Part shown: piece after piece, positions 3,154 through 40,347 of the stretch | Position numbering within the stretch: position 1 is the stretch's first letter | Layout of the letters: the number at the start of each line of letters is the position of its first letter | Source of the DNA: a virus | Taxonomy: Duplodnaviria > Heunggongvirae > Uroviricota > Caudoviricetes | Virus record (IMG/VR): IMGVR_UViG_2541047918_000003 | Length of the DNA: 47,928 bases | Strand: one strand, 5' to 3' | Made by a program: the position numbers and the translations under genes | The notes under the pieces: generated by a model | Told to the model about the DNA's origin: nothing | Databases searched by the model: none | The model's input: only the letters and a program-made list of their open reading frames with translations

Positions 3154-3753
3154 TCAGAAACGGTATCCGATACCAACAATAAATGCATCCGTTCGCCAGT
3201 CGCCACTGCCGGAGCCTTCATAAGCAATATCAATGGCCACGGATTCGGTCGGGTTAAACTGCACGCCAGCTCCCCACGCCAGAGAGGTATTGCTGTGGCG
3301 ACCGTCATCACTTCCGGTCAGCACGTCGTGCGTTTTCCCCTTGTTGTCAGTTACGCGGAGATAATCCCCGGAGAAAGTCGACACACGGCTGTAAGCCACA
3401 CCCGCCATCGCATACGCGCTGAACCATTCATTCACGCGCACAGACGGCCCCGCCATCACGCTGAACCAGCGGTTACGCACGGAATCTTCATGCCAGCGGG
3501 TATCGCTGTAATGCGTTTTTTGCTCATCTTTGGCATTGGCATAACTGAATGACGTCACCAGCCCCAGCGTGTCCGTAAACTCATAACGGTATTTCACGTT
3601 AATCCCGTTCAGATCATCGCTGCCTGGCATATCAGTATGGGTCTGAAGATACCCGGCGCTTAGTGTGGACTGATGCTCTGCTGCGCTCGCTGGCGTACCA
3701 GCGGCAACCAGCCAGACTACTGCGGACAGAATAACAGCACATAATTTACGCAT
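3154..3753 (-). CDS. lom: Lom outer membrane protein (Ail/Lom family)
   Basis: 199 aa; signal peptide; beta-barrel pattern ending GIGYRF; position directly after J. Confidence 0.85.
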   Translation of the reverse strand: MRKLCAVILSAVVWLVAAGTPASAAEHQSTLSAGYLQTHTDMPGSDDLNGINVKYRYEFTDTLGLVTSFSYANAKDEQKTHYSDTRWHEDSVRNRWFSVMAGPSVRVNEWFSAYAMAGVAYSRVSTFSGDYLRVTDNKGKTHDVLTGSDDGRHSNTSLAWGAGVQFNPTESVAIDIAYEGSGSGDWRTDAFIVGIGYRF

Positions 3754-3777
3754 AATTACCTCTCGCTTTTCTGCAAT

Positions 3778-3801
3778 AAAAAAGGCGCCATTTCTGGCGC
3801 C
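3778..3801 (-). terminator. intrinsic terminator after J
   Basis: Perfect 7-bp stem GGCGCCA/TGGCGCC with loop, followed by T6 on the minus strand. Confidence 0.55.
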
Positions 3802-3820
3802 CGTATTGGGGTTATAAAAT

Positions 3821-6800
3821 TCAGCTAATCGTGATGCCTGCAGTGGCTTTCTTCATCACAACAACCAGCAAATCGCTGATACTTGCTGTGGGATACCAGC
3901 CATTTACCCACCATGCTGATACAGAAAACTCCAGCGTCATGTGGCCGCGACCAGCAGGCATATCAATAACACCACTGTAAACCAGCGTATTATCCATCGC
4001 GGTACGGTTATAAATTTCAGCACCGTTTTTCTTCACTATCAGGCGGCATGACGAATAAGTATCGCTGTTCTCCCGCTCATGTCTGGCACCGCTGAAAGCC
4101 ACCGCCGGAATAACAATCTGCCGGTTAAACGGCTGATCGTCATAAACCCTGACGGTAATGGTTCCTGATGGCCAACGCTTCGGTGCACGGGAGTCACGAG
4201 GGAAAGCCTTACCCACTGTTTTAACGAGATCGCCTTCAATCTGGTTTGCAGACAGTTTCCCTCTGATGACACAGTTCTCGTTAATGGTGACATTATTGAG
4301 CGTGCCGGTATTCGCCGTGATGGCTCCACTGATATCCGCATTGCGGGCTGTCAGCCTGCCATCCGGCGTCAGGGAAAACGTCGGAGGATTGCCGGATGAC
4401 GTGATGCTCACCGCAAACAGTCGCTTCAGGAACACGTCGTTCATGAACAGCTGATTCCCCTGCGCCACAAACAGCGGCGTGGTGTTGCCGTTCTCCGGGG
4501 TAATCATCGCAATGCGATCGGCCTGCAGCAGAATGTTACTCAGGGTCTGACCATCAACATCCTCAATCCCCGCGCCAATCCCGGCCACATAGGGAATACC
4601 GTTTTTTGTTTTCTGCACCTTCAGCATATACATGGCATTCAGCTCATTGCGCGTGTCTGACTGAACCCGCTGGATTTGCTGTATGGTCACGGCCTGGTCA
4701 CCCAGCTTTTTATCCGTGGTCGAGGTAATTTCACTCCCTTTTTTATCCACGTACTGGCGGACCTGTGCTATCTGTCGGGCGTTTTCTGACTGCCCCTGGC
4801 TGACAGTCTGTGAGATTTCACTGCTCACCCGGTCCACTTTCTGGCTCACCTGCGCGATGGCCAGTGTCTGGTCCTCATTCTTTTTCGCAACCAGCTGCGT
4901 GAGGCTGTTTTCCGCCTTCCCGATTTTCCGGGTCACTTCTGCGATATCCGTGTCCATCCGCTGACGGATATCTTCTTCCAGTTGCGTGACCTCCGTACGC
5001 AGCGCTGAAGCATCAATGCGCTCTTTCAGTGCCTGACCCAGAAGCGTCTCATCTATCAGCCCCCGGAAAATTTCCAGATACCCTTCACCATCATTGCTGG
5101 GCTGCCCGCTGGCTTCCACAAAAGCAGATTTTCCCACCAGGTTGACGCTTCGCACGTAAAACCAGAAATCCGTCCCCGGCTTAATCCGGCTCCCCTGGAC
5201 AGTCCACTGACTGCCGGTCCCCAGATAACGGGCAGATTTTTCCACCTGTGCTGTGTTCGTGATGCGTTTTTCTGAGAACCAGAATTCAAACTGTACCGTC
5301 GGGTCATACACCGCAAGACGCGGGACCGCCGTTATCTGAAAATACCCCGGCGTCAGCTCAATGGTGGCGGGTTTTGCAGGTGCGTTAATCCGGAACGATA
5401 CCGACGCCGGATCGCCCTGCTGTCCCCGGGCATTTACCGCCCGGACCGTCAGCGTGTAACGCCCCAGCGCCAGCTGCCTGAAGCGGTAAGTGGTTTCCGC
5501 CGTCCGGGCCGTGCTGACCAGCCGCTCACTGCCGTCATCCGCTGTTACGGTCAGACGGAGCAGGAAGCTCACGCCCTTCACCACCTTCGGCGTGTCCCAG
5601 CGCGCCAGCACCTGATATTCCCCGCTGTCTGCGGTGACTTCGGCGGTCAGGTGCTGCACCGCTGGCGGCGTGACACCATTCACCGTGCCGCTCTGGTCGC
5701 CGTCAAAGTGCGCTCCGTTATCCACGATGGCCTCTTTTTCCGGTACATGCTGCACGGCGGTGATGGCATACGCACCGTCATCGTTCTCCCGGATACTCAC
5801 ACAGCGGAACAGGCGCTGGCGCAGCGTCGGCAGCTTCAGCCCCCACACGCTGTATTCGGCAACGCCGTCAGGAATACGGCTCACTTTCACCTTCACGCCG
5901 TCGGTGACGGACTGGACCTCCACGCTGACCGGATTCCCACTTCCGTCAACCAGGCTTATCAGCGTGGTGCCGGAGGATGACAGCATGATTTCACGGTCGA
6001 GCGTCAGCGTCCGGGTCTGGCTGTTCACCGCCAGCACGCGCCCGCCGGTGCTGATACCGGCATAGTCATCATCACAGATTTCAATGACATCGCCCGGAAC
6101 ATGGCGAAGCCCTTCTGCGCCGACGCTGAAGTCCACGGTCTGCGTTTCCAGCAGTTCTGTTTTAATCAGCCACAGCCCGGCGCGGTGTGCCTGCCCCCGG
6201 CTGGTACAGCCAAAGGCATCCATCTTCGTGACGTTACGACCGTAACGGGCAATGGCCTGCGTGTCCTCCACAAGCTCTGTTGCCGTCTCCCAGCCGTTAT
6301 CCGGGTCAATCCAGTTCACCTCAACGGCATTATGGCGGTCCTTCAGGGCGCTGAAGCTGTAGCGGAACGGCGCGCCATCATCCGGCATCACCACATTACT
6401 GCGGTTATAGGTCCACACCTTATCCGACGGTCGGTCCTGCACGAACGTCAGCGTCTGCCCGTTCCATACCGGCATACAGCGCATCGCCGAGCAAAAATCA
6501 CTGAGCACATCCCACGCCTTGCGCTGTGTGGTCAGGTACGCATTACAGGTGATGCGCGGCTCCGTGCCGCCAAAGCCGTCCGGCACTGACTGGTCGCAGT
6601 ACTGGCCGATGACATACAGCGCCCATTTATCCACATCCGCTGCACCAAGACGTTTCCCCATGCCGTAGCGCGGATGGGTCAGCATATCCCACAGACACCA
6701 GGCCATGTTGTTGCTGTATGCCGGTTTAAACGTTCCGTCCCAGATACCGCTGTATTGCCGCGTCTGCGGGTTATAATTCGACGGCACCTGCAGAATACGC

Positions 6801-33245: not shown

Positions 33246-33356
33246 TCTTTAGTCTCACACCAGATACTTTGTTATCCAACGATGTTAACCACAGGAACCC
33301 AAAGTATCAAGAAATTCTGTTACTTTAGTATCAACAGCCATGAGAGGAGAAGAAAA
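33246..33356. promoter_or_regulatory. right operator/promoter region (OR-like)
   Basis: 111-bp divergent region between the cro-like gene and cI with repeated GTATCAA/TTGATAC-type half-sites. Confidence 0.5.
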
Positions 33357-34013
33357 ATGAAGTCTTTAGGTGAACGTCTCATCAACGCACGGCAAAAAGC
33401 TGGGTTAACACAAGATGCGTTGGCTAAAAAAGCTGGGGTCACCAGAGTTGCAATCAGTAAAGCCGAGCAAGGCCTTACAAAAAGTTTCAACGGTGACACC
33501 CTTTTTAAAGTTGCAGCTGCACTGCAGTGTTCACCGCAGTGGCTTCAGAACGGAGATGAAAAAGATAAGCATTGGGAAAATAATGTTAAGAGCTGCCCAC
33601 AGAGAGACACAGCATACTCTTACCCTGTAATTAACTGGGTTCAGGCAGGATTATTCGCAACTTCTGGTGATGACTACAACATGTATGATCAGGATAATTG
33701 GAGGCATTCTGTAAAATACGCTGGTGAGAGGGGGTTCTGGCTGGAAGTGCACGGAGACTCAATGACTTCGCCCGTAGGAATAACATTTCCTGAAGGAATG
33801 TCGATCCTTGTCAACCCAGATAAAGAAGTTTTTTCAGGGTGTTACGTCATCGCCAGAAAAAAATCTACCAATGAAGCAACATTCAAAAAATATATTTCTG
33901 AAATGGGAAAGGCGTTTCTAAAGCCCCTTAATCCACAATATCCAATCATAGAAATGGACAATGATTGCGAAATAGTAGGTGTTGTGGTTGATGCCAGGTG
34001 GGATATTTTCTAA
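33357..34013 (+). CDS. cI: CI-like repressor (XRE helix-turn-helix plus S24 LexA-like peptidase)
   Basis: MKSLGERLINARQKAGLTQDALAKKAGV... helix-turn-helix; C-terminal peptidase-like domain; AGGAGA RBS. Confidence 0.85.
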   Translation: MKSLGERLINARQKAGLTQDALAKKAGVTRVAISKAEQGLTKSFNGDTLFKVAAALQCSPQWLQNGDEKDKHWENNVKSCPQRDTAYSYPVINWVQAGLFATSGDDYNMYDQDNWRHSVKYAGERGFWLEVHGDSMTSPVGITFPEGMSILVNPDKEVFSGCYVIARKKSTNEATFKKYISEMGKAFLKPLNPQYPIIEMDNDCEIVGVVVDARWDIF

Positions 34014-34029
34014 CCAGACACAAAACACA

Positions 34030-34100
34030 AAAAGAAACCAAAGTATCAAAAATCACTTGCCACACCTTGATACCTTAGTTACCATAAAACAAAGTTCGTA
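34030..34100. promoter_or_regulatory. left operator/promoter region (OL-like)
   Basis: Inverted GTATCAA ... TTGATAC pair matching the half-site seen in the OR region. Confidence 0.4.
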
Positions 34101-34116
34101 ACTGAGGTATCATCTC

Positions 34117-34533: not shown

Positions 34534-34772
34534 AAAACTGTGATGCTTACCATATTTGTCTCATTGGTGAATTGCTTGATTTCATACAAAAAAGCACTGC
34601 GCGCAATAATAAAAATATAACATATGGTGATCTGGTAATAATTTCAGAGGATATAAAGAGCATCGCTCTTAAATTCAAGAGCGACGCGAGTATTGATGAC
34701 GCTATTTACGCTTATCTTGCGAAAATAATTGACGGATCCAAAATCCAGCCTCTGGATGAACCTCGTCAGTGA
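34530..34772 (+). CDS. hypothetical protein (80 aa)
   Basis: ATGA overlap with the upstream gene; AT-rich. Confidence 0.4.
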   Translation: MKNCDAYHICLIGELLDFIQKSTARNNKNITYGDLVIISEDIKSIALKFKSDASIDDAIYAYLAKIIDGSKIQPLDEPRQ

Positions 34773-34929
34773 AAAACTCCTTTGATGAAGATGAGAACTG
34801 CTTCATAAACTTTACTTTATCTTCAGGTGAAACTACCTGACGAATTAATGCGGAGATAGCAACTTTGTGCCAAATTAATTCTTTTTTGAGTTCTGAAATC
34901 TCTTTTTCGAGTTGCTCTGCGTTAATCAT
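34702..34929 (-). CDS. hypothetical coiled-coil protein (75 aa), convergent with 34530-34772
   Basis: Strong GGAGG RBS 5 nt before the ATG at 34929; overlaps the neighbour's 3' end by 71 nt. Confidence 0.4.
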   Translation of the reverse strand: MINAEQLEKEISELKKELIWHKVAISALIRQVVSPEDKVKFMKQFSSSSKEFFTDEVHPEAGFWIRQLFSQDKRK

Positions 34930-35108
34930 TTATCCTCCATTGAGAGCTGAATTGAAAATGGGGACCAACACGCGGCTACGTGTGGTCGTGCGCCGGACAC
35001 GGATAAGCATCCGGTAACTGATTATCAATCATTGCGGAAACAGTCTCAATATGAAAACACTTCTGAGACTCGCTATATAGCAGGACATATAAGTCAGCTG
35101 AGGAAGCC

Positions 35109-35474
35109 ATGAAAAAGTTCGAAAACATAACTGTTCTCCATGTTGATGACTTTGATTATACAAACCCGGAACTTCTCCCGGAGGTTGTAAAGGCAATAGA
35201 TGTTGCCGATATAGTGATTAGAGGAAAGAGAATTGTCAAAAACAGGCTCGCATGCACTTCAGAAGCAATGACAGAAACAACCTCACAGCAAGATAATTAC
35301 GAAGGCATTTGTCTGGAGCCTGATTCATTTGCGGTAAATGTTTATCATTTATTGCATGCAACACAGGTATTACATATGTCCAGTAATCACGAAACGAAAA
35401 CACTCGGCAGCGAAATTCTGAATTTTGCATGTGAGTATGCAAAAACTGCTGCCGAAAAAGAATTAGCGCAATAA
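35109..35474 (+). CDS. hypothetical protein (121 aa)
   Basis: GAGGAAG RBS; possible hairpin plus T-run after the stop. Confidence 0.5.
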   Translation: MKKFENITVLHVDDFDYTNPELLPEVVKAIDVADIVIRGKRIVKNRLACTSEAMTETTSQQDNYEGICLEPDSFAVNVYHLLHATQVLHMSSNHETKTLGSEILNFACEYAKTAAEKELAQ

Positions 35475-35552
35475 CAACAAATATGCTCTGAACGTTTATT
35501 GCGGTTTTATCGCCGGGGATTGTTACAATCTTAATCCACAGGAGGATTTATT

Positions 35553-35666
35553 ATGACTTTTATAAAGAATATGGCATCACACAAGACCGCCTGTCTTATT
35601 GCACAATACGGTGAAAATTACATGCATATTGCCTGCTTATTTCTGCGTAAAGCATACGGGAAATAA
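35553..35666 (+). CDS. candidate 37-aa leader peptide
   Basis: ATG preceded by AGGAGG; stop 3 nt before the next ATG; too short for the ORF track. Confidence 0.3.
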   Translation: MTFIKNMASHKTACLIAQYGENYMHIACLFLRKAYGK

Positions 35667-35669
35667 CAA

Positions 35670-36029
35670 ATGACACATGAACCCATTAATACATATCGTC
35701 GCCGTATAGCTGTTGCAGCACTCCATCGAATAAAACGTAAAACAGGTGGTGATCTGCTTATTGTTGACCTTCTGGATGGGAACATTACGACCATAGAAAT
35801 AACAGAACAGTTTATAAACCAGTTGCTGTTGCGCTTTGAAGATATTACCCGTGGTGAATTGGGTCGAGTGGAGGGTGAAACAGAATTCCGAACTGCATAC
35901 CAGAATGCCATCGGGATTAATCAACATACTGAATACCAGGCTGAAACCGGAAAGTTAATTATAGACAACCTTTTACAAGAGGTTATTGATTACGCGAAAG
36001 AAAAATATATCAGCGGAGGAATTAACTGA
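35670..36029 (+). CDS. hypothetical protein (119 aa)
   Basis: First gene of a four-gene overlapping operon. Confidence 0.5.
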   Translation: MTHEPINTYRRRIAVAALHRIKRKTGGDLLIVDLLDGNITTIEITEQFINQLLLRFEDITRGELGRVEGETEFRTAYQNAIGINQHTEYQAETGKLIIDNLLQEVIDYAKEKYISGGIN

Positions 36030-36244
36030 TGGCTAATTTATCCCCTGTATCTGTTGTGCACGAAAAAGTGCAGATCGTTATGACAATTGAAAATGGCCAG
36101 GTAACAGATGTCTGCAAAGTCCGCGATGGAGAGCTGATTGCCAGCATGGATACATTCATATGGCTGGCAGAAAGAGCGGGGTATCAGATAACAGCACCTG
36201 CTCAGGAGGAAACCAGTGACATTAACAGCAACGCGAATTCCTGA
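36029..36244 (+). CDS. hypothetical protein (71 aa)
   Basis: GGAGG RBS; start overlaps the upstream stop. Confidence 0.45.
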   Translation: MANLSPVSVVHEKVQIVMTIENGQVTDVCKVRDGELIASMDTFIWLAERAGYQITAPAQEETSDINSNANS

Positions 36245-36434
36245 GTGGGTCCACCAGCAGGCGTTGCTGGTCCTGCGGCGGTACAGATGCCGACGTATAT
36301 TCCCGCATCGGATACAGCGCAACGGATATCTCAGTCTGAAGGTTAACCGTCGCTGGCGGCTGTTATCGAAAGACGACGGCCGGAACTGGGAAATAATGAG
36401 TCATGAACGTTATTCGGGAGAAATAAAGAAATGA
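36216..36434 (+). CDS. hypothetical basic protein (72 aa)
   Basis: GTG start with AGGAGG RBS; Arg-rich; overlaps both neighbours. Confidence 0.4.
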   Translation: MTLTATRIPEWVHQQALLVLRRYRCRRIFPHRIQRNGYLSLKVNRRWRLLSKDDGRNWEIMSHERYSGEIKK

Positions 36435-36823
36435 TCGACAACCGCACCGCCAGCGCCATTGACCAGGCATTACAGAAACATGATACACCCGTCGGCCCGT
36501 TATTTTTTGTAACACATCACGGAAGAACAAAAAAATGCCTCACTCGAAAAACGGCAATTCGTTACCTGGCATTCTTTATGACCACCCGCGCTTTTGAACG
36601 TTCAGGATTCCGACAACGCCATCCTGACAAGCGTTTTATCTTCAACGGGAATGAAATATGGAAACGTGGAGAATCAACCACAGAGTACACCCGCGCACAC
36701 CAGCGAACAATCAGACGACTGCGCAGACTCATCGCCAGGAAACAGTATACAGAAAAATGGTTCAGAAAATATGACACATGGAGCGCCGGATATTACGAAC
36801 TGATGGCAACAAAACCATTCTGA
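36431..36823 (+). CDS. hypothetical basic protein (130 aa)
   Basis: ATGA overlap with the upstream gene; Arg/Lys-rich C-terminus. Confidence 0.5.
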   Translation: MIDNRTASAIDQALQKHDTPVGPLFFVTHHGRTKKCLTRKTAIRYLAFFMTTRAFERSGFRQRHPDKRFIFNGNEIWKRGESTTEYTRAHQRTIRRLRRLIARKQYTEKWFRKYDTWSAGYYELMATKPF

Positions 36824-36883
36824 CGTAAACGAAATTAACCATGACGCAATTAAATAAGGCAAGCTGAATACAGCAGGAGGACC

Positions 36884-37072
36884 ATGAACATTTATTTCAG
36901 AATAGTTATATCACTGGCAATTATCGCATGTATTTACGGATTGCTCGTCCCGTTTCTGATATCAATGAAGGATACGGTAGCGGTGATTTCTGGCTTTGCA
37001 CTGACGTTTCTAACCCCGCCATGTATTTATACCATTTATAAGGGGCTTTCTTTCACTAAGGATAAAAGATGA
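36884..37072 (+). CDS. small membrane protein with two predicted transmembrane helices
   Basis: 62 aa; AGGAGG RBS; ATGA overlap with the SPFH gene. Confidence 0.5.
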   Translation: MNIYFRIVISLAIIACIYGLLVPFLISMKDTVAVISGFALTFLTPPCIYTIYKGLSFTKDKR

Positions 37073-37896
37073 AAAAAATTATTTTTTCTTTAGCCATTGT
37101 TCTGCCTGCCATTGGCCTTGTCGGTTGTGATCGTGTTGAGCCTGGTAATGTGGGCATCAAAGTCAACAAACTTGGCGACGACAAAGGCGTCGGTGAAGTG
37201 GTCGGTGTTGGTCGCTACTGGACAGGCTGGAACACTGAAGTTTATATCTTCCCGACCTTTAAGCAGATGAAGACCTACGATGATCCATTCAGTTTCCAGA
37301 TGAGCGATGGAACAACCATTGGTTACCACATCGGAGTAGCCTACAAGGTTGATCCATCCAAAGTTACCACAGTCTTTCAGACCTACCGCAAAGGCGTGGA
37401 CGACATTACCGACACCGACCTGCGCCAGAAGATAGCCGACGCACTCAACCGACTGGCCAGCAAAATGACCACCGACAAATTTATCGACGGCGGCAAGTCT
37501 GAGCTGCTGGATGCAGCTCTTAAAGACATTCAGGAAGAAATGACGCCCATCGGTATTCAGGTAATAAGCCTCTCATATGTGGGTAAGCCGGAGTACCCGC
37601 CTACTGTTATCGACAGCATTAATGCCAAAGTCACGGCGAACCAGAAAACTCTGCAACGCGAGCAGGAAGTAAAACAGCGCGAAGCGGAAGCCAACATGTT
37701 GCGCGCGGAAGCTGCCGGACAGGCTGATGCGATTCGCACAAAAGCCCAGGCTGAAGCCGATGCTATTCGTTTACGCGGTGAAGCTCTGCGTCAGAACCCC
37801 GGTGTTATGGAGCTGGAAGCCATCAATAAATGGAACGGCACGCTGCCGCAATACATGACCAGCGGTGCCAATACACCATTTATCCAGGTTAAATAA
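37069..37896 (+). CDS. SPFH (band 7 / prohibitin-like) lipoprotein
   Basis: 275 aa; signal peptide with lipobox LVGC; SPFH-like core; coiled-coil Ala/Glu/Gln-rich C-terminal region. Confidence 0.75.
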   Translation: MKKIIFSLAIVLPAIGLVGCDRVEPGNVGIKVNKLGDDKGVGEVVGVGRYWTGWNTEVYIFPTFKQMKTYDDPFSFQMSDGTTIGYHIGVAYKVDPSKVTTVFQTYRKGVDDITDTDLRQKIADALNRLASKMTTDKFIDGGKSELLDAALKDIQEEMTPIGIQVISLSYVGKPEYPPTVIDSINAKVTANQKTLQREQEVKQREAEANMLRAEAAGQADAIRTKAQAEADAIRLRGEALRQNPGVMELEAINKWNGTLPQYMTSGANTPFIQVK

Positions 37897-37967
37897 CTTA
37901 ATATGCCCGGCAGGCCGTCGGGCTAAGGGAAAAGCAGATAAACACTCATAATACTCAACCGCAAATA

Positions 37968-38741: not shown

Positions 38742-38978
38742 ATGGGCAATGTGATTCAACTGGCTCCCAATGAATGGGTTTGTGAAAGCGTTCTTATCGC
38801 AATTACCGGGCTCAAACCAGGCACAATTCTTCGGGCCCGGAAAGAATGCTGGATGGTTGGAAGAGAGTATATTCACGTATCACCAGACGGTAATCCAAAG
38901 CCTTCCAGTGAATGTATGTATAACAGAAAAGCAATAGATGCCTGGGTCGCCTCAATGAAAAACAAACAACCCAGGTGA
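38742..38978 (+). CDS. xis: excisionase (Xis-like)
   Basis: 78 aa; immediately upstream of int; GAGG RBS. Confidence 0.65.
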   Translation: MGNVIQLAPNEWVCESVLIAITGLKPGTILRARKECWMVGREYIHVSPDGNPKPSSECMYNRKAIDAWVASMKNKQPR

Positions 38979-39033
38979 TTTAATATCATGAAATATGTAA
39001 GCTCGTATCGCTCTTGGGCGTCTGGAGGTATCG

Positions 39034-40347
39034 ATGGATAAAGTCAAATATCCAACAGGCGTCGAAAACCACGGCGGCACATTACGCATCTGGTTTAATT
39101 TTAAAGGTAAACGTGTCAGGGAAAATCTTGGTGTCCCTGACACTGCCAAGAACAGGAAGATCGCCGGGGAACTGCGGACATCAGTATGTTTTGCCATCCG
39201 CACAGGAAGCTTTGATTATGCTGCACAGTTCCCTGACTCCCCCAACCTTCAGGCTTTTGGGGTAAGTAAAAAAGAAATTACGGTGAAGGAACTTGAAGAA
39301 AAGTGGCTGGATCTGAAACGAATGGAAATCTCTGCAAATGCATTCAATCGCTATGAATCCGTTGCAAGAACGATGGTTCCGAAAATTGGAGGCAGTAAAC
39401 TGGTGTCATCGGTAACCAAAGAGGAATTGCTGTATATCAGGAAAGATTTGCTGACCGGGTATCAGAATTCAACGAAAAACAAAGCAGCAGCAAAAGGACG
39501 GAGCGTCGTTACTGTAAATTATTACATGACGACAATCGCTGGAATGTTTCAGTTTGCTGCAGATCACGGTTACTTAGAAGCAAATCCCTTCCAGGGAATT
39601 AAGCCTCTTAAAAGAGCCAGGGCAGAGCCAGATCCGCTAACTCGTGACGAATTTATTCGCCTGATAGATGCTTGCCGACATCAGCAGACGAAAAACCTGT
39701 GGTCATTGGCTGTGTACACAGGAATGCGTCACGGTGAACTGGTCTCCCTGGCCTGGGAAGATATCGATCTGAAGGCAGGAACAATTACCATCAGGCGCAA
39801 TTATACGAAACTTGGTGAGTTCACTCTACCGAAAACTGAAGCAAGCACAAACAGGGTTGTGCACCTTATCCAGCCCGCTATCAGTGTCCTGAAAAATCAG
39901 GCTGAAATGACAAGACTGGGTAAGCAGTACAACATCAAGGTGCAACTACGTGAATATGGACGTTCAGTGAACCATGAATGTACTTTCGTGTTTAACCCTC
40001 AAGTGGTTAGAAAAAGCGAACAGGTAGGTTTTGTCTACAAAGTCGATTCTGTAGGTGACTCATGGGAAACAGCCATTAAGCGTGCAGGGATCAGGCATCG
40101 AAAGGCATACCAGTCACGACACACTTATGCGTGCTGGTCATTATCTGCCGGAGCAAACCCAAGCTTCATTGCCAGCCAGATGGGCCATGCAAGTGCCCAG
40201 ATGGTATTCAATGTATACGGAGCATGGATGACTGACAGCAATGCAGAACAGATCGCAATGCTGAATCAGAAGCTGACAGATTATGTCCCAATGATGCCCC
40301 ATAGTCACCAAAGTGACACCAGAGGCTTATTAAAATCAGTAAGTTAA
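39034..40347 (+). CDS. int: tyrosine integrase
   Basis: 437 aa; conserved Arg, His-x-x-Arg (SRHTYACW) and C-terminal Tyr; GGAGG RBS; stop abuts the host gene remnant. Confidence 0.9.
   Translation: MDKVKYPTGVENHGGTLRIWFNFKGKRVRENLGVPDTAKNRKIAGELRTSVCFAIRTGSFDYAAQFPDSPNLQAFGVSKKEITVKELEEKWLDLKRMEISANAFNRYESVARTMVPKIGGSKLVSSVTKEELLYIRKDLLTGYQNSTKNKAAAKGRSVVTVNYYMTTIAGMFQFAADHGYLEANPFQGIKPLKRARAEPDPLTRDEFIRLIDACRHQQTKNLWSLAVYTGMRHGELVSLAWEDIDLKAGTITIRRNYTKLGEFTLPKTEASTNRVVHLIQPAISVLKNQAEMTRLGKQYNIKVQLREYGRSVNHECTFVFNPQVVRKSEQVGFVYKVDSVGDSWETAIKRAGIRHRKAYQSRHTYACWSLSAGANPSFIASQMGHASAQMVFNVYGAWMTDSNAEQIAMLNQKLTDYVPMMPHSHQSDTRGLLKSVS

Follow-up and report, generated by a model that had tools for sequence, protein, structure and literature searches.

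The question raised by the locus studied here is whether a compact block of small overlapping phage genes forms one functional unit, and whether any of its proteins can be assigned to a recognised family. The block occupies positions 35,553 to 36,823 of a DNA stretch of 47,928 nucleotides (the whole of which we call the window), the tailed-phage record IMGVR_UViG_2541047918_000003 of IMG/VR (Caudoviricetes); this is a prophage of the phiP27/Fels-1-like type, located at yecE. The block, which lies wholly on the + strand, consists of a small open reading frame (ORF), orf37 (35553-35666; 37 amino acids, ATG start), followed by g1 (35670-36029; 119 amino acids, acidic, isoelectric point (pI) 5.4), g2 (36029-36244; 71 amino acids, acidic, pI 4.3), g3 (36216-36434; 72 amino acids, GTG start, very basic, pI 11.3) and g4 (36431-36823; 130 amino acids, basic, pI 10.8). 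An earlier description of this DNA (the original prediction) regarded orf37 as a leader-peptide ORF and the other four genes as a co-translated module without recognisable families, and pointed to it as a possible new anti-defence or exclusion system. Our analysis indicates instead that the block is a conserved syntenic run of separable accessory genes and not an obligate module, and that one of its members, g3, belongs to the RelE/ParE superfamily and is probably an mRNA-interferase-type effector, judging from its predicted fold and conserved residues.

The g3 protein matches the Pfam family PF24732 (ParE_like, "ParE-like toxin domain") with 63.7 bits against a cutoff of 24.4 (E=1.6e-17), the match spanning positions 1-65 of the 67 positions of the profile, and the same domain was present in all of the close g3 homologues (56/56). 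RefSeq names g3 "ParE family toxin-like protein", and one phage annotator also uses toxin or mRNA-interferase naming. The AlphaFold model of g3, with a predicted local distance difference test score (pLDDT) of 91.6, superposes on the structures of RelE, HigB, YoeB, YafQ and ParE and has the N-terminal helix packed on a 3-4-stranded antiparallel sheet by which the RelE/ParE fold is recognised; searches of PDB by sequence and profile gave no solved-structure relative. Among 1.84 billion cluster representatives, only 130 matched the g3 family profile at E<=0.001, most of them stand-alone proteins of ~70 amino acids. Literature searches found nothing on PF24732 or on the RefSeq accessions of the five proteins of the block. 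The g3 protein is a further member of a Pfam family that is already catalogued in the RelE/ParE superfamily. The original prediction had recognised no family in the four proteins and had proposed profile and structure-based homology searches; its statement stands for the function of g1, g2 and g4, which is unassignable and for which sequence and profile searches (and, for g4, a search with its model) gave no relatives beyond PHROG families labelled as of unknown function, but not for g3, which profile and structure searches placed in the RelE/ParE family and fold, and all four proteins are already members of PHROGs.

An alignment of 52 diverse members of the g3 family (mean column identity 35%) showed A16 and R48 to be invariant and L49, H63 and Y66 to be conserved in at least 90% of the sequences. 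In the model, R48 lies on the central strand, and H63 and Y66 form a His-x-x-Tyr motif at the start of the C-terminal helix. The strand motif of g3 (G-x-x-S-hydrophobic...W-R-L-L) and its C-terminal H-E-x-Y resemble motifs of HigB and YoeB. The active site of YoeB includes His83 and Glu46 (PMC2807027), and the conserved Arg together with the H-E-x-Y motif suggests a YoeB/HigB-type mRNA-interferase site in g3.

All five ORFs are genuine genes. The coordinates, overlaps and ribosome-binding sites of the original prediction agreed with the ORF listing and the sequence, and so did its remark that two of the proteins, g3 and g4, are strongly basic. The stop codon of orf37 is separated from the ATG of g1 by 3 nucleotides (read from the sequence), g1 and g2 overlap by 1 nucleotide (TGATG), g2 and g3 by 29 nucleotides, and g3 and g4 by 4 nucleotides (ATGA). 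AGGAGG or GGAGG precedes orf37, g2 and g3, GGAG precedes g4, and the site before g1 is weak. When IMG/VR was searched with each of g1-g4, 44-161 relatives per protein were obtained, and iterated hidden Markov model (HMM) searches over the related loci gave 59-87 distinct sequences per family; homologues of all five ORFs were found in dozens of diverged loci. The median pairwise ratio of non-synonymous to synonymous substitutions (dN/dS) was 0.20 for orf37, 0.17 for g1, 0.33 for g2, 0.18 for g3 and 0.16 for g4 (dS ~1.1-1.7), which shows all five ORFs to be protein-coding and under purifying selection. The view of the genes as compact, translationally coupled and real is therefore upheld. For g3, a Shine-Dalgarno-like core was seen 5' of the GTG or ATG start in 35 of 42 distinct relatives and the alignments of homologues extend to residue 1, which favours the 72-amino-acid form over the 40-amino-acid form given by some annotators.

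We then compared the gene order among 96 distinct related locus variants with enough flanking sequence. The order orf37, a gene for an acidic protein of ~70 amino acids, g1, (g2), g3, g4 and a gene for ~192 amino acids, in which the ~70- and ~192-amino-acid genes and g2 may be missing, recurs in prophages of Escherichia, Klebsiella, Salmonella, Enterobacter, Citrobacter and Aeromonas. All four genes g1-g4 were present in 61 of the 96 variants and g1 in 94, counts which are inflated, since these genes were themselves the queries used to find the loci. Among the 89 variants bearing g3, 25 were without g2 and 3 without g4; conversely, 5 variants have g4 without g3. The individual losses can be seen in single phages: Fels-1 lacks g3 (g1-g2-g4), phi467 lacks g4 (g1-g2-g3), and AsXd-1, a phage of Aeromonas, lacks g2 (g1-g3-g4). 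In one set of loci, g3 differed in identity from its neighbour (86% for g3 versus 97-98% for g4), indicating recombination inside the block. When one genome per species was sampled by a g3 pattern (see below), g4 followed g3 in only about half of the prophage-type loci. Because relatives exist that lack g2, g3 or g4, the block is not an obligate unit, so that the module of the original prediction survives as a widely conserved gene order and not as an indivisible system.

A further variation of the locus concerns the place of g3 itself. In L132 and L160 (both at 3352-4011) and in L152 (3363-4004), g3 is replaced by an ORF of 213-219 amino acids with g4 kept downstream; the ORF of L132 and L160 retains the first ~10 codons of g3 (ALTAIRIPE...) and then diverges. 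This ORF could be a homing-endonuclease-type insertion into g3.

Outside such prophages, PF24732 genes were found in quite different surroundings. A degenerate DNA pattern for the WRLLS...W...H motif, applied to species-representative genomes, gave 120 loci (L255-L374), nearly all in Enterobacterales. About 25-30 of these are of the prophage type, with the PF24732 gene after g1-type genes. In ~54 of the 120 (e.g. L262, 5332-7742, and L257, 5662-7948), a gene for a DUF2857 (BisC-like) protein is followed by the PF24732 gene and then by a replication gene of the STY4528 family of islands; in several inspected loci the DUF2857 and PF24732 genes have 4 nucleotides in common, and several (e.g. L262 and L277) have a ParB-like ORF further upstream. 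In 11 others (L265, 3233-6720; L274, 4473-6222; L276 and L288 among them), the PF24732 gene lies between a gene for a Rv2179c-like 3'-5' exoribonuclease and one for either an 885-amino-acid primase-like protein or a Dam-type methylase. Relatives were also present in 68 phage records, including genomes of Murrayvirus, phages presumed lytic, where lysis genes adjoin. DUF2857 is the domain found in BisC, the partner of the ParB-domain protein BisD in BisDC, the activator of transfer competence of ICEclc (PMC7423338). It appears from the gene order that the RelE-fold gene rides in a bisDC-type activation operon of elements like Salmonella pathogenicity island 7 (SPI-7) and ICEclc. The PF24732 family is thus often carried in the activation or early operons of several kinds of mobile element, without a common partner. 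One could go further and suppose that PF24732 proteins are antitoxin-independent RelE-fold effectors of several kinds of mobile element (temperate phages, bisDC-type integrative and conjugative elements (ICEs), primase-bearing satellite-like elements and some presumed lytic phages), which would be switched on within the activation operons of these elements (the early-left operon in temperate phages) and would briefly arrest or re-programme host translation during replication or transfer, with g4 as a lineage-specific partner or modulator; we regard this generalisation as unlikely.

For the block itself we favour, at about an even chance, an explanation in which its members would be independent early accessory genes and g3 would be a RelE-fold endoribonuclease expressed on induction and lacking a dedicated antitoxin. 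The five small, translationally coupled genes belong to the CI-proximal early-left operon of the phiP27/Fels-1-like phage at yecE, and their order is kept in many Enterobacterales prophages by common descent, with single genes lost or replaced. Of the five, g3 alone allows its biochemistry to be inferred, as a minimal RelE/HigB/YoeB-type fold. On induction of the prophage, g3 would presumably be made from the leftward early promoter (PL) and would act on translating ribosomes or mRNA as a putative endoribonuclease, its activity, like that of T4 RegB, damping or re-programming host translation; no dedicated antitoxin would be involved, and g2 and/or g4 may modulate g3 in this lineage. Several points weigh against this explanation. 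The proposed mechanism of g3 has only the fold and the conserved residues as its basis. The model has one N-terminal helix and not two, the second helix (alpha2) of typical RelE toxins being absent. Profile alignment by hhalign gave the g3 family low probabilities, 32% with HigB and 13% with YoeB, and the alignments, though in the expected register, stop short of the C-terminal His and Tyr. (In the YoeB sequence used, E46 and H83 are numbered as published (PMC2807027), and in the register of its 13% alignment G37 and R48 of g3 fall on G54 and R65 of YoeB.) A small acidic g2 overlapping a small basic RelE-fold g3 is the classic layout of a type II toxin-antitoxin pair. Moreover, g3 and g4 occurred together in 86 of the 94 variants having either, subject to the upward bias already described, and this near-constant pairing with the ATGA overlap would fit a HigBA-like toxin-first pair.

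The main rival to the independent-gene explanation is accordingly that g3 is the toxin of a prophage type II toxin-antitoxin module, with its antitoxin encoded by g2 (ParD/RelB-like order) or by g4 (HigBA-like order); the module would serve to stabilise the prophage or to bring about abortive infection. We consider this somewhat unlikely. The fold and Pfam family of g3 and the toxin or mRNA-interferase names given by RefSeq and one phage annotator are as expected of such a toxin, and a precedent in the immunity region of a lambdoid prophage exists in paaR2-paaA2-parE2 (PMC8630535). The small acidic g2 would be a suitable partner for the small and very basic g3, which it overlaps by 29 nucleotides, but g3 is without g2 in the 25 of 89 variants mentioned above, and Fels-1 keeps g2 and g4 without g3. 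As for g4, its co-occurrence with g3 and the 4-nucleotide overlap, kept in 80 of the 86 close variants having both genes, favour the pair, but phi467-type phages have g3 without g4, g4 lies 3' of g3 in only about half of the species-level prophage-type loci, and this downstream protein has no match to the helix-turn-helix (HTH) domain (Xre-type) of a HigBA-type pair. Neither g2 nor g4 showed a ribbon-helix-helix, HTH, AbrB or Phd/YefM domain in Pfam, NCBIfam and PDB sequence searches, or similarity to solved antitoxins including PaaA2 and PaaR2, and in the ICE, exonuclease/primase and Murrayvirus contexts the neighbours of the g3 relatives are unrelated. A consensus scan detected no + strand promoter-like site near g2 or g3, a result which cannot exclude a promoter (7 sites were found in total against 7.6 expected in shuffled sequence), and the genes are preceded by ~2 kilobases of a long operon which the lysogen probably keeps repressed.

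It is also conceivable, though quite unlikely in our estimation, that g3 is a catalytically inactive RelE fold serving as a regulator that binds the ribosome, RNA or a protein, and that the block is a collection of unrelated accessory genes with no theme. The shortness of g3 relative to canonical toxins and its missing helix alpha2 would agree with this, and the fact that g3 stays intact in hundreds of genomes with no consistent antitoxin would be most easily explained if g3 were not toxic; yet a gene repressed in the lysogen can persist even if toxic, and the invariant Arg and near-invariant His and Tyr, in a family with ~35% mean column identity, occupy positions that would correspond to catalytic ones of YoeB-type enzymes. 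As for the proposal that the four genes are one co-translated anti-defence, host-takeover or superinfection-exclusion system, it can draw on the early-left position (the lambdoid site of such functions), the tight coupling of the genes, the order conserved in 61 of the 96 variants and the lack of known relatives for three of the proteins. The components are, however, individually dispensable in natural relatives, the unequal identities of g3 and g4 indicate recombination within the block, and relatives of g3 are found in unrelated gene neighbourhoods. No significant match to the defence-system HMMs of PADLOC-DB was obtained either (the only match was that of g1 to a type II restriction-enzyme model, with 14 bits and E=0.0076, and the other proteins had none), which is a weak negative for anti-defence, since PADLOC covers defence systems only. 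We consider such a single system very unlikely, and no finding specific to anti-defence or exclusion emerged in support of that pointer of the original prediction.

Comparison with known systems helps to place the favoured explanation, in which g3 is an early effector without a dedicated antitoxin. Compared with the RelE/ParE toxins, g3 differs in its length of 72 amino acids and its single N-terminal helix, its family is without a conserved cognate antitoxin, and it lies in a long phage early operon and not in a two-gene autoregulated one. The nearest functional analogue we can propose is T4 RegB, an early phage endoribonuclease with a RelE/YoeB-like structure that inactivates mRNAs and has no known antitoxin (PMC3014915). 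In the paaR2-paaA2-parE2 operon of the cryptic prophage CP-933P of E. coli O157:H7, the first gene encodes a CI-like repressor and the operon is itself the immunity operon, whereas the present block lies ~2 kilobases 3' of cI, past a gene on the opposite strand, and g1 and g2 have no similarity to PaaR2 and PaaA2. The lambda genes kil, cIII, ea10, ral and sieB are arranged in the same style, as small genes that overlap, and occupy the same place with respect to the repressor and int; the five block proteins showed no detectable similarity to lambda Kil, CIII, Ea10, Ral, orf28 and N. The block is in this respect typical lambdoid early-left "dark matter" with one member already catalogued. Should g3 prove to be an active RNase that is made without a dedicated antitoxin, enzymes of the RelE type would not be confined to toxin-antitoxin addiction modules but would also serve temperate phages and ICEs as ordinary early effectors, which would provide a testable handle on the damping of host translation at prophage induction and ICE activation. 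Of mild interest are also the spread of PF24732 across elements without a fixed partner and the lack of a detectable fold relative for g4.

The gene at the head of the block, orf37, proved to be a small protein gene and not an attenuator tied to g1-g4. Its family consists of basic proteins of 32-38 amino acids with the consensus MxFIKDKAAYKTAxLxAxxGxxYxxIAxLFLRKAYGR, in which A13, G20, L29 and K33-A34-Y35-G36 are invariant, and the protein pattern is preserved among 63 distinct nucleotide versions in the related loci. The segment 35480-35669 is conserved by itself (up to 96%) in numerous prophages of E. coli and in Shiga toxin (Stx) and phiP27 phages without g1-g4; in these the homology ends exactly at the end of orf37, and unrelated genes then follow. 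A leader peptide, an attenuator and a nut-like RNA were each considered for orf37 and rejected: a terminator scan found no + strand terminator near it, RNA folding around it gave a z-score of 0.12 and no significant structure, and Rfam had no match upstream of or around it. The leader-peptide ORF of the original prediction was accordingly abandoned in view of these results, the mere 3 nucleotides between orf37 and g1, the conserved protein pattern with a dN/dS of 0.20 and the unrelated genes that it precedes elsewhere. No Pfam match was found for orf37, including 20 members of its family. A resemblance to lambda Kil or CIII, suspected by eye, was also rejected, as blastp gave no alignment and hhalign a probability of 1.9%. 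Both the orf37 family and g4 occur widely in prophages of Enterobacterales, those of clinical E. coli, Klebsiella and Salmonella among them, and would be reasonable but unremarkable targets for functional screens.

With respect to the other proteins, g1-g4 are full-length members of PHROG 1737, 340, 1525 and 1886, respectively (E values of 2e-25 to 6e-59; E=5e-50 for g1 and E=2e-25 for g2), all of which are labelled "unknown function". For g1, g2 and g4 there was no Pfam or NCBIfam match and no PDB relative by sequence or profile. The predicted secondary structure of g4 is an alpha helix, a beta-hairpin, an alpha helix, a beta-hairpin and a long C-terminal helix, and its model had no fold relative in PDB or BFVD. 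A homology of g1 and g2 to PaaR2 and PaaA2 was rejected, as PDB sequence and profile searches were empty. The g2 protein weakly matches the C-terminal part of an anti-repressor PHROG (5.6e-5), and some of its homologues (P0246, P0252, P0253 and P0270) carry a precomputed assignment to the Pfam family PF27490. Its conserved C-terminal tail "...DSNTNS" overlaps (36216-36244) the conserved N-terminus of g3 in another frame, and the conservation of the tail is a consequence of this overlap; in variants without g2 the tail is fused to g1, so that the overlap with g3 survives the deletion of g2. The g2 protein is a candidate modulator or antitoxin of g3.

The surroundings of the block agree with the early-left position assigned to it by the original prediction, between a CI-like repressor with a candidate PL on one side and xis-int on the other. 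Positions 35000-37900 of the window are 100% identical to the chromosomes of E. coli ZH063 and other strains, and in these records the five genes come after those for a LexA/CI-like repressor and another HTH protein and before xis-int. The repressor gene (33357-34013, + strand) was identified from RefSeq annotation and from Pfam (HTH_3 and Peptidase_S24) on the identical loci. GATAC-type repeats occur at two places, between cI and cro (33263-33311) and immediately 3' of cI (34027-34112), and are candidate OR and OL/PL operators of the phage. A promoter-like TTGCCA-17-TACCAT lies beside the latter repeats at 34057-34085, suggesting that the region 34027-34112 on the + strand, directly 3' of the repressor gene, is a candidate PL and that the block is early-left and probably repressed in the lysogen. 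The block flanks match phiP27 and several Stx phages at ~89-92%, where g1-g4 are replaced by other genes. Downstream, the identical loci have in order a 62-amino-acid membrane protein, an SPFH lipoprotein, DUF5406 and DUF4222 proteins, and an excisionase and tyrosine integrase (38742-40347, + strand); the last two form the prophage end, which is adjoined by yecE (DUF72), yecN and cmoA.

Some minor observations were made on the neighbouring genes. A 75-amino-acid gene on the - strand (34702-34929) is set into the early-left operon of the + strand, with the HTH gene on one side and a 121-amino-acid gene on the other. RefSeq calls this gene hypothetical; it has its own terminator-like hairpin (34660-34687) and may be a moron that the lysogen expresses. 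The 121-amino-acid ORF 5' of orf37 (35109-35474) is called as 68 amino acids by RefSeq (start at 35268) and annotated in phiP27 with the full 121; it matches PHROG 5451 over its full length and weakly a PHROG of a CII-like regulator (3.7e-4). Next in the same operon after g4 (36884-37896, + strand) and common to phiP27 and Stx phages is the gene for the 62-amino-acid membrane protein, a member of PHROG 1130 ("host takeover/moron"), which shares an ATGA overlap with the gene for the SPFH/Band-7 lipoprotein. The pair resembles SPFH proteins with a small membrane partner and is also found in phiP27, P88 and many Stx phages; in some phage annotations of the phiP27/P88/Stx type, the SPFH protein is named "serine protease".

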